64,000 nucleotides of DNA, from positions 5,086,001-5,150,000 of the forward strand of contig NC_087250.1 in NCBI RefSeq assembly GCF_037042905.1, in the 5' to 3' direction. The stretch comes from Lytechinus pictus. Taxonomy: Eukaryota. Positions within the stretch are counted from its first letter, which is position 1. Every line of letters starts with the position of its first letter. The notes beneath the pieces are model-generated. The model made no database searches and had not been told where the DNA came from. It saw nothing but the letters and a program-made list of their open reading frames with translations. Below, in pieces: positions 1,478 to 56,621 of the stretch. Both the position numbers and the translations under genes were made by a program.

Positions 1478-1598
1478 GGTTATGCTTATTTACTTTTAGG
1501 ACTGACTTTTAACGTCACCATCCAAAAGAAGTGACCGGGTCTCAAACCTCGAACTTTTGAATAATTAGTTCCCCCCCACATTGCTTGCATTGCAAGTA

Positions 1599-24867: not shown

Positions 24868-25001
24868 ATGTGTGGAATTCGAATGATACTAGCCATTCAT
24901 TTTGAACTCATATAGAGAGGAAGGGTTCAGTGTAGAATTGAAGCAAATCAATTTCAGTGATGAATTGTTTTTCTTGTTTACATTGTAGAGTGTTGAGGAA
25001 C

Positions 25002-26170
25002 ATGATACGTCGGAGAAAGTTCATTGTTCTGGCTGCCATTCTCAGCGCTGCTTGCTACTTGCAACTGTTTCTTCTCATCGAGCAGACGGACCTGAGCAAC
25101 GACAGAGACATCATCCTCCCCGTCAGGTCGCCAGACTTGGAAGAGCCGAGGAGGTCCATCTCCTCGAACGGATCAATGACGGGAGACACAAGGGAAGCAG
25201 GGTCTTTGGGCCAAGCTTTGACCCGATCTTGGACCACACGAAACAACCACGTGAAACCACGTTACAGGGATTTCAGGACAAATTCAGAAGTAAAAGATGC
25301 CGTGGTTAATAGTACCTTGATGTCAAGGACTAAGCCAATGGTACAACAGTTCAATTCTGGAAGGAAATCCACGATAAACCACACCATAGCAAACGACAAT
25401 GACCTTACGTATCACAAAGGCTCCCGGAAGAACCAGGTTGTGAAAAGTGTTACGGGCATTCCAATGACAACACGCTCACGTGATCAATCCGCTGTGAAGC
25501 AGGGCGATCCAGGCGCAGACTTCTTGGTAAAGCAGCCCCAAAACGGTACAGAATCGAAACCAAAGCAAAAAGTTGTTGACAAGAAGCTTCGAGAGCTTGA
25601 CGCAGAATCTGTACTACTCAAAGCCGAGATTGATCACCGGAAGATGCATGTTTCGACGACAAGGGCTCCATCCCACCGCTGCCACCGAAATGTACACCTG
25701 TGGGCTAACGCAGCCAATGAACTGGGATACCGTAAAGGTAAACACCTGATAGACTGCCCCAGAAGTGTCTGCGATGTCCAGATAACCCTCGACATGGACG
25801 TCAACACCATGCAGGAGAATGAAGCGCTTGTCCTGTTCCATTGGTCGAGCTGGGACTGGGGAAAACTGCATAGCTTTCGGCCACCAGGGCAGAAATGGGT
25901 CTTCTACACCCTGGAGAGTCCTCGGCACACACGGCGTCATGTCATCCCGCCAGATAAATACTATAACACTTCGTATGATTACATAATGACCTTCAGGTAC
26001 GACTCGGACTTCCGTGCTGATTATGGGCAATATAGGGCTGGGATACCAGAGCTTGAGGCGGACGACAATAAAAATTGGGCTGAAAATCGAACCAAGCTGG
26101 TTGCCTGGATGGCATCAAACTGCCGCGGCACATCGTGGCCAAGAATGGACTTCGTTCAGAGGCTCTCAAG
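25002..26170 (+). CDS. Alpha-1,3-fucosyltransferase (GT10 family), coding exon 1: cytoplasmic tail, TM anchor, long stem, N-terminal catalytic domain
   Basis: ATG at 25002 lies just after a splice acceptor (ttcttgtttacattgtAG, 24987-88). MIRRRK plus hydrophobic FIVLAAILSAACYLQLFLLI is a type II Golgi anchor. GT10-like motifs: RPPGQKWVFYTLESP, MTFRYDSDF, KLVAWMASNC. Donor AG|gtaaga at 26170/26171 (phase 2). Confidence 0.93.
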
Positions 26171-26195
26171 GTAAGAGTTTGTTAGAAGTACATTC

Positions 26196-27540: not shown

Positions 27541-28261
27541 AGGTGACGGTTCGTACGCCAGGGTGCCTCTTGCATTTTATTATTGTTTTAAACCGTCAAA
27601 CAGTAGCATAGAGATAGGGGGCCTTTGGGTGCTTGCCCCCCCCCCCAAAAAATAAAAAAATAGTAATAATAAATAATAAATAAATTAAATAAATAAATCA
27701 CAATCAGAAAAAAAAGAAAAGGAAAGAGAGAAGGGTGAGTCTGATATTTTGCTGTATATTATGTCAAAATATATCACGAAATTGGAATTTGCAATAAATA
27801 TCGAAAAATTCCCGCTCGCTTCGGTCGCTCGCAACTTTTATTCAATTTTGCCCGATACGCCATATCTGGCCCCCTCAAAAGTTTTGGGTCATTACGCCAC
27901 TTCCGTCAAATTTCAAACATTCAACTCGACTGACAATGTTAAGCAGTAGGTGAGTCATAAGTTATTGACCCCCCTTATGTCTTTGCTTTTATTATCATTG
28001 GGTGATTTCAAGTCCGGTGTTAGTGTTGGTGTTAGTGTTGGAAGCACAGTTTGGATTGGATTTCCTCGCTCCAAAACTTATTCTGAGTTTACAAAAATAA
28101 CCCAGACCACAATATTGACACCTCAACACCTTGTGAGAGACTTTTCAGGACTATCTCCCTTTTATGTTTGGTGTTACACTCGTGTAAACATTGCTATAAC
28201 ACCAACACCAAAGGGTCAACACTGAACTTGAAATCACACATTGTGCTCATATATTTTGCAG

Positions 28262-28772
28262 ACACATCTCAATTGATATGTACGGAAAGTGTGGCAATCT
28301 CAGCTGTCCTCCCGGGACTCAAGAATGCAACGAAAGACTGAAGCAGTATAAGTTCTACCTCGCTCTCGAAAACAGTGAATGCACGGACTATATCACCGAG
28401 AAGTTCTGGATCCAGGCCCTGGTTCGGGGTCTAGTCCCCATTGTGTATGGTCCTCAACGGAGCGACTATGAAAAGGTCGCACCTCCGAATTCCTTCATAC
28501 ACATCCAGGACTTCGCGACGACGAAGGAACTGGCAGCGTATTTGCAGAGGGTGGACGAAGACGACGCGCTGTATAACGCGTATTTCCAATGGAAGAAGGT
28601 TGGGTCCTTGAAACCTTACGGGACTGAACCGAGTATCTTTTGCCAGCTTGGGGATCGCTTGACAGCCGATGAGAGGGCGCTGCAGGCTGGGACATACGTG
28701 CCTTCTCCGCAGAAAGACTGGAAAGTCTGGTGGGGCCAATCGTGTAGAAGGCAGGGAGATACACCCGAGTAG
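28262..28772 (+). CDS. Alpha-1,3-fucosyltransferase (GT10 family), coding exon 2: GDP-fucose-binding C-terminal domain
   Basis: Acceptor ttttgcAG ends at 28261. The phase-2 join reads RLSR-HISIDMYGKCG in frame. Contains the signature YKFYLALENSECTDYITEKFW, plus VPIVYG, APPNSFIHIQDF and YNAYFQWK. Stop TAG at 28770-28772. Confidence 0.95.
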
Positions 28773-54513: not shown

Positions 54514-55622
54514 TAAGATTGATCGCTTAGCTTCGTGTTACTGGTTACGGGCCCCGGTAGGCACACTGAGATTTAAAGGTAGAATTAAGTTCAACCTGAA
54601 GAAAAGCTTCTTGTAAAAAGAGCAGAAAAATAATTTAAAAAATATTGGTGCAGGCTTGAGGAAAATCCATTAAAGATTAAGAAAGTTAGTAGAATTTAAT
54701 GTTTTGGATTTGTGACATCATAGACGAACAGCTGCCTCATATGTTATATGATATAAAACGCATAAATTTCCATTTTTGAACGGTTCGTGACGACTTATTT
54801 TTGTGTACGTCTTACGCCATTGGCAACACCCCTTATGTAAAAAAATAGAAATATGACCCTCCCCCCCAAAAAAATACCTTGATTAGTTTATTTTTCAGCG
54901 AAACCCTTTTTTTTTGGGGGGGGAGGGGGTCGAACGATCTTTTTCTGACAAAAATCACCATCATTTTTTTCGAGTGAAAACGTTTTTTTTTTTTTTGGGG
55001 GGGGGGCTTGTCAATTTTTTCCAGTGCCCTGCCGACCAAGCGATACAGTTGGCAAGTACAGTATCAGCAATCAATGGGCATTTCCCATCCCTTACATACA
55101 AAGTGACGTTTAACTCGAAACTCGTCGGACGTTAGAAGACAACACTGTGTCAACGTTGGAAGAGAACGCTGCCAACGTTGGAGCAACGTTGTTGCCAGAT
55201 ATCGTCGGAGTCGGACCAACGTTGTAAACATCGTTGGACTGACGATTCTAATTTCAAGGATGCAGCGTTGCCTGCCACACAATTGACGCAACGTTAATTG
55301 TTAAAACGAATTCACAAGGTTACGTTAGTCCAACGTTGTACGCAAGCTTTATTGTTGATTGGAATGGTACGTTGCTGGGCAGGTCACATATCAAGGTCAA
55401 ATGTAGCTTGAGGTCAAATGCTAAAGTTCACCCACAAAGCTCTCTCGTGACGCAACCTTGCAACCATGACACAATATTCTACCTTGGTTGTAGAAGCACG
55501 CGTGAATGTGTTTCCGTCAAAGGTCACGTGATGAGGAAATGGATGTTACATTCAACCAGTAACGTAATAAGCCAAACATTTTGAGGGGGTCAAACATGTT
55601 GTGTGGGACAACACACGCCACA

Positions 55623-55948
55623 ACTGGGCGTTGTGGCGTGTGCCTGTATTCCAAGCTATGTGGGGAAGTTACAAATTGATCAGAGGTTCGAGGTTCGAGC
55701 CCTGGTCACGTCTATCGGGGGAGCGTTTCATGAAAGGACTTGTCGGACGTTTTATCCGACAAGTCCCATTTTATCCGACAGTTACCATAGGAACAGTGCC
55801 TTTCAGCCAATCAACATGCATGAAAGATGTCAGATCTGACAAATGTTGATGAAACACTCCCCAGATGGTGACGTTAAAAGTCGGTCCCAGACGTAAATAA
55901 TCATATCTGATTGATACACGTCTGACAAAACTCAAATACACACACACA
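55623..55948 (+). mobile_element. Candidate 7SL (SRP RNA)-derived SINE, interrupted by a MITE
   Basis: Head ACTGGGCGTTGTGGCGTGTGCCTGTATTCCAAGCTATGTGGGGAAGTT resembles the SRP RNA 5' Alu domain. B box GGTTCGAGCCC at 55692-55702; body GTCTATC(G/A)GATGGTGACGTTAAAAGTCGGTCCC; (CA)n end. Confidence 0.7.
55719..55861. mobile_element. Harbinger-like MITE inside the 7SL-headed element
   Basis: CGG|GGGAGCGTTTCAT ... ATGAAACACTCCC|CAG. Confidence 0.8.
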
Positions 55949-56621
55949 TTTTTTTAAAGTCGCAAGCGAGCGAAGTGTGTGAGCAAAAATGTTGACCTTG
56001 TTAATACAAAGAGCTAATTTCATGGTAGATTGTATCAATCTATGTCATATTTCACCCTTGTCAGTCCATAATTCATTTCTTCTTTTTCTCTTTTTTTTTG
56101 GTGGGGGACCCCCCCCCCCCCCCCCCTCCCCCCATCTATACGTTTGAGCGTTCAATGGCAGTGACACGATATATGCTCATGCTACATTTTGATCTGCGGC
56201 CTTAATATCTCAGAGGGTCGGAGTTGGTATTGTAACAGAGTTTTTGGTTCAGAATAATGTATATAGGTTATAATTCGGGTTTCTTTAGTTATGGAGGTTA
56301 GGTTACAGGGGCCGCGGAACGAACGGTTTTCAAAGTGGGCGGGGGAGGGGGGCTGACCATGCAAAAATCACAATCCTATGGTCATCTTTACGTTTTTTTT
56401 GTACACGGTTTTGGAAAAAAGTGGAGGGGGGGGGGGGGCTGAAGCCCCCCTCCCCGCTTCCGCGGCCCCTGGGTTATAAGGTGTGTTTGGCTTATAACGT
56501 GTAGACTTTCCATTGGAGTAATCATCGCCGGAGCAAATGTCGTGGAACCTCAATGGCAGGTATCAATCAAAGGATTCATCGTTGGGTGATAAAGATAACT
56601 GATAAGTTATTCATGTTCAGT

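Follow-up and report, generated by a model that had tools for sequence, protein, structure and literature searches.

A family of short interspersed elements with a probable 7SL RNA head in the sea urchin Lytechinus pictus

We analyzed a stretch of 64,000 nucleotides (nt) from the sea urchin Lytechinus pictus (the window; NCBI RefSeq assembly GCF_037042905.1, contig NC_087250.1, positions 5,086,001 to 5,150,000 of the forward strand). At window positions 55623-55948 lies a copy of a short interspersed element (SINE) that begins with a piece resembling 7SL RNA, the signal recognition particle (SRP) RNA, continues through a linker with a B box into a short body, and ends in a hairpin and a (CA)n tail; its body is interrupted by a miniature inverted-repeat transposable element (MITE). 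An initial annotation of the window had proposed a dispersed SINE of ~180 nt with this build in an invertebrate genome, a proposal that was borne out, and both boundaries it gave for the element are correct; in the sequencing runs, loose read ends are found past 55948. The parts of the element, and a second copy in the window, are as follows.

55623-55669, plus strand: 7SL-derived head, corresponding to the 5' Alu domain (cmscan with RF00017, near-identity to the host 7SL genes L031-L037, A-box scan).
55670-55709, plus strand: linker not derived from 7SL, with the B box (no significant similarity to host 7SL; perfect B-box match).
55710-55717, plus strand: first part of the SINE body, GTCTATCG (GTCTTTCGGATGG in the family consensus), interrupted by the MITE (alignment to uninterrupted copies).
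55718-55863, no strand assigned: 146-nt MITE in the SINE body (inverted repeats; absent from all other copies examined).
55864-55887, plus strand: remainder of the body, GATGGTGACGTTAAAAGTCGGTCC (98.8% identity to consensus positions 97-181).
55888-55937, plus strand: 3' tail region, with a predicted hairpin CAGACGT...ACGTCTG (55888-55924), an inner stem and then ACAAAACTCAAAT (minimum-free-energy fold of consensus positions 88-181).
55938-55948, plus strand: (CA)n microsatellite tail and end of the element (all copies have a (CA)n of variable length).
1481-1594, minus strand: second copy, old and 5'-truncated (80.2% identity to consensus positions 23-138 by blastn).

The window had been thought to hold only one copy; the degenerate copy at 1481-1594 and a tail-like fragment of the SINE at 476-528 show otherwise. 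A joint of 55588 to 55949, which might represent an empty site, has short sides and lies between repeats, and we did not use it as evidence. The 47-nt head of the window copy, ACTGGGCGTTGTGGCGTGTGCCTGTATTCCAAGCTATGTGGGGAAGT, comprises helix 2 (ACT/AGT), helix 3, the loop TGGC, the U-turn CCTGTA and helix 4 (TCC/GGA). The helix-3 stem, the U-turn and the TCC/GGA helix are present, and the turn of this particular copy is altered by a private A>T change (CCTGTATTCC, compared with CCTGTAATCC in the family). The four-pair closing helix AACT/AGTT has to be shortened to the three pairs ACT/AGT; the A at 55622 belongs to the flank. Within the linker, a perfect B box (GGTTCGAGCCC, 55692-55702) matches GGTTCGANNCC without mismatch, in agreement with the earlier observation of a B box 3' of the head. 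Directly 5' of it lies a 7-nt duplicate, GGTTCGA (55685-55691), which is typical of the younger of two subfamilies, and 3' of it lies a T-arm-like stretch, ...CCCTGGTCAC. The consensus ends (positions ~119-176) with the CAGACGT...ACGTCTG hairpin and ...ACTCAAATA(CA)n, a predicted structure that we presume to be the recognition site for the reverse transcriptase of a partner long interspersed element (LINE).

The host has seven full-length 7SL genes (L031-L037), which score 272-283 bits with the Rfam model RF00017. Six of them start with ACCGGGCGTTGTGGCGTGCGCCTGTAATCCAGCTAC; the seventh, L037, starts ACTGGGCG... and continues ...GCTGCTTTGGAAGT. The SINE consensus is 92.7-94.4% identical to the six (over positions 1-36 for five of them and 1-41 for one) and identical to L037 at 31 of 31 positions. 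When a subfamily-B copy is aligned to L037, 42 of 46 columns match, two are mismatches and two are one-letter gaps, and the alignment stops at GGAAGT, which forms the 3' strand of helix 2; by hand comparison, the window copy agrees with the host 7SL genes in 32 of 36 columns. The identity begins at +1 of the 7SL gene. Comparison with the host's own genes thus upholds the view that the head comes from 7SL. Further, the head has A at +1 and GTTG in place of cgcgg, urchin-specific letters by which it departs from the Rfam metazoan consensus; because the SINE shares these letters, descent from the vertebrate 7SL SINEs is excluded. The ACT/AGT closing helix had been read as a compensatory change within the SINE, but L037 already has ACT...AGT, and the helix was therefore inherited from an L037-like gene.

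The resemblance to 7SL stops early. From position 49 to the end, the best local score against host 7SL is 15, which was reached by 182-212 of 300 shuffles, and the SINE has no 7SL 3' part, unlike Alu and B1, which have lost ~183 nt from the center of 7SL but retain the whole Alu domain, helix 5 included. In cmscan, the window copy matches Metazoa_SRP (RF00017) at 55623-55713 with 28.6 bits (E 5.6e-5), a match that covers only the Alu domain and skips 217 central model positions (the S domain), consistent with the initial statement that no S domain follows the head. Subfamily-B copies match model positions 1-44 only, at 31.2 bits (E 3.2e-5), and the "helix 5" assigned to subfamily A is a hairpin produced by the B-box duplication that brings no gain in score (30.0 compared with 31.2 bits). 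Given the match to positions 1-44 and the lack of 7SL similarity past ~47, the SINE keeps the 5' Alu domain alone; the 7SL head that had been proposed is real, but only its 5' ~47 nt are 7SL-derived. In the minimum-free-energy fold of nt 1-48, the helix-3 and helix-4 hairpins form while three helix-2 bases are left unpaired, but these are paired in the cmscan consensus structure. Across the family, SINE copies lacking the S domain score 28.6-34.9 bits, compared with the 272-283 bits of true 7SL genes, and hence do not represent functional SRP RNA genes. We assign a probability of roughly 0.85 to the reading that the element is a SINE copy whose 5' end was copied from the 7SL RNA of the host's own lineage; that a 7SL-headed SINE family exists is, if anything, slightly more secure.

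A SINE of this kind might alternatively be a tRNA-derived SINE2 whose A-box region resembles 7SL by chance or convergence. The B-box segment does resemble a degenerate tRNA T-arm, and the sea urchin SINEs that we found named in the literature are SINE2 elements. However, chance would have to account for the 31 of 31 identical positions and the further extension to 42 of 46 columns, with identity from +1 of the gene; ARAGORN finds no tRNA in window positions 55000-56500, and cmscan returns SRP RNA rather than tRNA. We regard a tRNA origin of the head as extremely improbable.

To count the family, we made exhaustive pattern searches of the 812-Mb genome, allowing at most 3 mismatches in 33 nt and using reversed patterns as controls. 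These returned 1309 matches for the head (positions 2-34), 1370 for the tail and 793 for the head/linker junction of one subfamily, with 0 matches for each control. A 96-nt query of head and linker gave 1656 first-look candidates in the same genome; the 40 that were scored yielded 42 matches, 39 of them at 95-96% identity over 94-96 nt and distributed over many contigs. All 10 sampled exact-tail sites on contig C1 carry the 7SL head. The many dispersed copies that the initial annotation had named as support therefore exist, and the element is not a chance 7SL fragment. Copies occur on more than 20 contigs and are non-tandem, apart from a few tandem or dimer arrangements. When 30 loci were laid side by side, the uninterrupted SINE measured ~176-185 nt plus a variable-length (CA)n and was bordered by unrelated flanks, the exception being L002, L004 and L011, which have flanks in common. 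Unrelated flanks already contradict the possibility that the copies are segmental duplications, which would share flanks throughout.

Against a majority consensus built from 28 copies, 29 copies show 96.4-100% identity; six intact copies and both pieces of an interrupted copy (L024) are identical to it. Because several copies are identical to the consensus, the family is young. Diverged relatives of the same build are also present (the window copy at 1481-1594, at ~80%, and, by eye, L050 and L054), and the lineage thus holds both old and very young copies. Both the SINE and the MITE occur, at a likeness of at least 90%, in contigs of sequencing runs labeled as two other organisms, as does the MITE-free junction, so the family is not confined to a single assembly.

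The copies fall into two subfamilies. The older, B, has AAGCTGTGGGG and a single B box, whereas the younger, A, has AAGCTATGTGGGG and the 7-nt B-box duplication; these diagnostic changes, a 3-nt indel and the duplication, are common to many copies. All copies that we saw have the same junction between 7SL and non-7SL sequence and lack the S domain. These observations bear on a further explanation, in which the copies arose repeatedly as chimeric retrocopies when a LINE reverse transcriptase switched template from SINE2 or LINE RNA to 7SL RNA, as in mammalian U6-L1 chimeras. Template switching is a known route and one of the proposed origins of the hagfish element discussed below (PMC7245038), and it may well explain the single founding event here. 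Independent chimeras, however, would vary in their junction and would carry 7SL that is full-length or randomly cut, whereas the urchin copies share one and the same junction and their diagnostic changes, reach 100% identity, and present ~1300 heads for ~1370 tails. Repeated chimera formation is thus a very improbable source of the family, though marginally less so than chance resemblance of a SINE2. The uniform chimeric structure likewise distinguishes the copies from plain 7SL retrocopies. With its 7SL-derived 5' part, the family is a SINE1 family in the Repbase sense, of independent origin and with a composite head.

The ends of the copies carry marks of integration. Twenty of 27 copies start with ACTGGG and the rest lack the first 1-2 nt, with flank letters in their place, which gives the sharp 5' boundary at 7SL +1 that had been expected of a genuine family. 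Exact target-site duplications of 4-9 nt were found by a strict script in 15 of 27 copies, and inspection by eye shows a longer one in L008; some copies are 5'-truncated and have flanks of their own; the flank 5' of copies often ends in CA; and in head-to-tail arrays (L045) a new copy abuts the (CA)n of another. The CA flanks, arrays, target-site duplications and truncations fit target-primed reverse transcription by a microsatellite-tailed LINE.

Truncated copies also show a hot spot of 5' ends at consensus positions ~86-88, (A)CGTCTTTCGG, where by hand classification ~60 of 72 pattern matches are head-less, begin no more than ~3 nt from this point and have their own flanks (for example, L074-L079). 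For comparison, ~10-12 of 58 matches are head-less starts at position ~119 and ~10 of 18 at position ~150. The hot spot could possibly arise because reverse transcription stops at the structured head or because the RNA is processed after the T-arm-like segment.

Head-to-tail SINE dimers are present at five or more loci (L039 1501-1875; L041-L044), always with the same flanks on both sides. We considered a dimeric, Alu-like subfamily and rejected it: the five dimer loci have identical flanks, and the dimer therefore travels inside a larger repeated unit. L045 is a head-to-tail trimer whose members differ in their B box (GGTTCGAGCCC, GGTTCGAATCC and GGTTCGAACCC).

At the level of motifs, the SINE has the makings of a type-2 RNA polymerase III (Pol III) promoter, with suitably spaced A and B boxes and no internal terminator. 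The A-box-like GGGCGTTGTGG lies at position 4, with 2 mismatches to TRGCNNAGTGG; the perfect B box occupies consensus positions 71-81 in subfamily A and lies at ~64 in subfamily B by hand count; and no TTTT occurs in the consensus. In the coding region of the host 7SL genes, no B-box match was found at 2 or fewer mismatches. Because 7SL RNA has no internal B box, a retrocopy of it would lack half of its promoter, and we infer that a 7SL-headed SINE in this host must have acquired its B box from another source, probably a tRNA-derived SINE. A search for a sister SINE2 with the same body, using a pattern of tRNA-type A box, B box and GAYGTTAA, gave 13 matches, namely 10 variants of the family itself and 3 unrelated tRNA-derived SINEs; at this stringency, no sister family emerged.

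B boxes do occur beyond the host 7SL genes. Six of the seven (L031-L036; C10 and C1) have GGTTCGAGTC(C) 15-60 nt downstream, past the T-run terminator, in a context resembling a tRNA 3' half (CCTGGTTCGAGTCCAGGGTGTCTCC) and followed by a second T-run; in L031, the distance from the gene end to a perfect B box, GGTTCGAGTCC, is 21 nt. This layout recalls yeast U6, which has a downstream B box. We considered the downstream B box as the source of the SINE's B-box segment but found no support for this, as the two regions are similar in nothing but the B box (10-53 of 500 shuffles scored as high).

The three 7SL genes of the C10 cluster also have old SINE copies as neighbors, lying ~30 nt upstream in the same orientation and between the gene and a conserved upstream element, CCCTCAATAsGACAATAAA, that is also found 5' of the C1 genes. 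In L031, the unit of upstream element plus SINE is duplicated.

L031 877-1472, L035 1294-1467 and L036 1315-1467, same strand as the gene: SINE copies 5' of the C10-cluster 7SL genes, at 81-91% identity to the consensus.

Fewer than 35 nt of body separate the B box from the tail hairpin. This body contains, within GATGGTGACGTTAAAAGTCGGTCC in the window copy, a motif of ~20-30 nt (GACGTTAAAGGTCGGTCC) that the initial annotation had likened to the Deu/Nin central domain; in invertebrates that domain (Deu/Nin-DC) is ~70-120 bp long, longer than the SINE body here, and searching the full-text literature for the body motif returned only unrelated primers. The short GACGTTAAA...GG(T/A)CC motif 3' of the B-box segment is also found after the tRNA part of an unrelated SINE2, L055 (C14:23275833). 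L055, L056 and L057 are tRNA-derived SINE2 elements; in L055, GACGTTAAAC follows the B box at a distance of ~20 nt, a position that corresponds to that of the motif in the 7SL-headed SINE.

We propose a life cycle in which Pol III transcription, SRP9/14 binding and dependence on a LINE each have a part. The ~47 nt of 7SL would supply the transcription start and the A-box-like motif, and the B box of the foreign segment would complete an internal Pol III promoter, at which Pol III would begin with A1, where the 7SL gene also starts, and read until it meets a T-run in the flanking DNA. In the transcript, nt 1-47 would adopt the fold of the SRP Alu domain (helices 2-4 and the U-turn), and this 5' domain may bind SRP9/14, so that the RNA would be parked on ribosomes to await nascent LINE reverse transcriptase. 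The reverse transcriptase of a "stringent" sea urchin LINE would then recognize the 3' hairpin and (CA)n and copy the RNA by target-primed reverse transcription, and integration would leave short target-site duplications and some 5'-truncated copies. The SRP9/14 step is suggested by analogy: a 46-nt 5' Alu domain (SA46/AY46) is necessary and sufficient for association with SRP9/14 in human cells and sustains retrotransposition at 73-86% of the full Alu level (Moldovan, Yin and Moran, 2025, PMC12199147), and the same step has been proposed on the basis of the hagfish element (Kojima, 2020, PMC7245038).

The head of the same element could instead serve as a promoter module and for RNA stability only, with mobilization through the 3' hairpin and (CA)n and no docking to SRP9/14 or the ribosome. 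For stringent LINEs, recognition of the SINE 3' end is enough and a 5' signal is not required (Kojima, 2020, PMC7245038), and the younger, more successful subfamily has an altered L1.2 loop. Moreover, most pattern matches at the ~86-88 hot spot are head-less with their own flanks, so the head is not needed for the integration step itself. Yet a fragment kept only as a promoter could be much shorter, because the A box ends at ~nt 14, whereas the 7SL breakpoint falls at the end of the folded 5' domain (helix 2, AGT). The same 46-nt piece is needed for SRP9/14 binding and efficient Alu retrotransposition (PMC12199147), and the Alu-domain fold has been kept by independently arisen 7SL SINEs (Kojima, 2020, PMC7245038; Kosushkin et al., 2026). 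We therefore consider a head without docking unlikely, though by a much smaller measure than the two other alternatives. That the 7SL-headed family both is undescribed and works through SRP9/14 docking has, as a joint claim, about an even chance.

Several observations weigh against this picture of a 7SL-headed, LINE-mobilized SINE. The Rfam scores of the copies lie below the gathering cut-off of 70, as expected for a fragment. SINEBase defines a SINE as a short (<1 kb) interspersed repeat with at least 60% identity to tRNA, 5S rRNA or 7SL RNA over at least 60 nt, or with Pol III transcription (PMC3531059); the family is interspersed and, at 176-185 nt plus tail, of the right size, but its 91-100% identity to 7SL extends over only ~46-47 nt. 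The L1.2 loop reads GCTATG in the younger subfamily and GCTAC in host 7SL. Human SRP has two loop-loop pairs; one of the two may be lost in this subfamily, and SRP9/14 binding is therefore not guaranteed. In one RNA sequencing run, the SINE was covered alike on both strands, 93% of the reads ran into unlike flanks and no discrete start was seen. Such reads probably derive from copies embedded in longer RNAs, and the pattern neither shows nor excludes Pol III transcripts.

The partner LINE also failed to appear in four exhaustive pattern searches, each for a stretch of body or tail preceded by six positions required to be unlike the SINE, which returned indel variants of the SINE, 5'-truncated copies and one unrelated repeat of ~85 nt ending in AACTCAAA(CA)n. 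A search with the Pfam domain RVT_1 gave 150 scored matches from 12239 candidates; the 3' regions of eight intact-looking LINEs, picked from these 150 by open reading frame length, have poly(A) or other tails and no similarity to the SINE beyond (CA)n runs.

The ~85-nt repeat, CATGGGCGGAAATCTC...GAATTACTAACTCAAA(CA)n, has the same start base at three loci (L096-L098; C2:25670034, C4:21107637 and C12:22309976). Only its terminal AACTCAAA(CA)n is found in the SINE as well; both may depend on one LINE. L093 is an intact-looking LINE with a 1022-amino-acid open frame and the 3' end ...AATAAAATGCAGAAACTCCTGC(A)n, and on the minus strand at window ~529-580, adjoining the tail-like fragment at 476-528, we saw by eye a 3' end, ttaaatgcagaaactcctgcc, that resembles it.

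Among known elements, the closest comparison is with the hagfish SINE1-1_EBu (Ebu1-1; Kojima, 2020, PMC7245038), a 7SL head of independent origin outside Euarchontoglires. Like the urchin SINE, it is composite, has a microsatellite tail that is not poly(A), though of (AAC)n rather than (CA)n, and is presumed to depend on a stringent non-L1 partner (RTE in hagfish); both were probably born when a 7SL piece fused to an existing SINE or LINE-derived 3' part. Its copy number is given as 2363 (quoted in PMC13023118), compared with ~1300-1400 young copies in the urchin. The hagfish element, however, keeps the 5' and 3' regions of 7SL around a central deletion, whereas the urchin SINE has only the 5' ~47 nt, takes its B box from non-7SL sequence and resides in an invertebrate.

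Alu, B1 (FLAM/PB1) and Urop resemble the urchin SINE in starting at 7SL +1, keeping the 5' Alu-domain fold, lacking the S domain, having an internal A/B-type Pol III promoter (as motifs only in the urchin SINE) and including young, near-identical copies. These mammalian elements consist of 7SL only (positions 1-63, 76-83 and 267-299 of human 7SL), with a 7SL-derived B box and poly(A) for L1 (PMC7245038). By contrast, the urchin SINE is monomeric and combines 7SL positions 1-47 with a foreign B box, body and hairpin; it departs from the Alu/B1 architecture in having no 7SL 3' end and a (CA)n tail after a hairpin in place of a poly(A) or A-rich tail of L1 type. Tu-type SINEs of tree shrews, with which we compared it by description only, likewise have a head composed of 7SL-derived and tRNA-like sequence, but they belong to the SINE1 lineage of Euarchontoglires and have an A-rich tail for L1.

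The sea urchin families SINE2-1_SP to SINE2-6_SP and the Meta- and Deu-SINEs share the host group and the arrangement of a B box followed by a short, conserved-looking motif; according to their descriptions, they are set apart by tRNA-derived heads. The engineered 46-nt Alu domain (PMC12199147) matches the ~47 nt retained in the urchin SINE in having helices 2-4 and the U-turn, though it is a human construct assayed with L1 in HeLa cells, whereas the urchin element is natural and would use a different LINE.

In the available text of the literature up to February 2026, 7SL-derived SINEs are recorded only from Euarchontoglires (supraprimates), hagfish and one shrew mole, each new case having been called unexpected (Kojima, 2018; Kojima, 2020, PMC7245038; Kosushkin et al., 2026). 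We found no invertebrate 7SL SINE in the full-text literature, a body of work outside which lie the entries of Repbase, Dfam and SINEBase and the sea urchin Pol III retroposon of Nisson et al. (1988, cited in PMC3531059). The urchin family may accordingly represent an independent echinoid lineage of 7SL-headed SINEs, apparently the first in an invertebrate, that joins a ~47-nt domain to a B box of foreign origin and to the tail of a LINE that is not L1 and has a microsatellite end; we hold the odds of this full description to be evenly balanced.

The MITE that interrupts the window copy was placed at 55718-55863 because, in 4 of 4 sequencing runs, reads and contigs join 55717 to 55864 and skip 146 nt; the initial annotation had correctly seen a MITE here but put it at 55719-55861. 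It has terminal inverted repeats of ~17 nt (GGGGAGCGTTTCATGAA and TTGATGAAACACTCCCC) and an inner palindrome (GGACTTGTCGGA and TCCGACAAGTCC), and no clear target-site duplication could be made out around 55718-55863. The MITE itself is very abundant, both in RNA reads and in the contigs under each of the three organism labels.

Elsewhere in the window, on the plus strand, lie two exons of an alpha-1,3-fucosyltransferase-like gene, with PF17039 and PF00852 (Pfam) on the matched proteins. The first of these (25032-26174) is 90% identical to a Lytechinus variegatus protein and less so to proteins of L. pictus, Strongylocentrotus and Diadema. Downstream of the SINE are long palindromes of G-runs and C-runs (ggtgggggacccccccccc...), one of which gives a weak, sub-threshold match to mir-343 (26.3 bits, cut-off 70). 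Similar hairpins flank the SINE loci L022, L046 and L075 and probably belong to another repeat family.

24942-26174 and 28200-28772, plus strand: two exons of the alpha-1,3-fucosyltransferase-like gene.
56088-56134 and 56412-56471: G-run/C-run palindromes.

For annotators, the family accounts for 18 sub-threshold "SRP RNA" matches in this genome, and such matches should not be taken for 7SL pseudogenes. More broadly, 7SL-derived SINEs include Alu, the most abundant human repeat, and their independent origins are very rare; an echinoderm case would carry them beyond the vertebrates. The minimal head would be a natural counterpart of the engineered 46-nt domain, offering an independent test of SRP9/14 binding as opposed to a promoter alone, and of whether the advantage of a 7SL head holds with a LINE that recognizes a specific 3' end. 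Because the family is young and sea urchins are laboratory models amenable to transgenesis and embryo microinjection, these questions are experimentally accessible. If the proposed life cycle is true, docking to the ribosome through SRP9/14 would be a general way to hijack LINE machinery, arrived at separately in mammals, hagfish and echinoderms, and effective with stringent LINEs as well as with L1.

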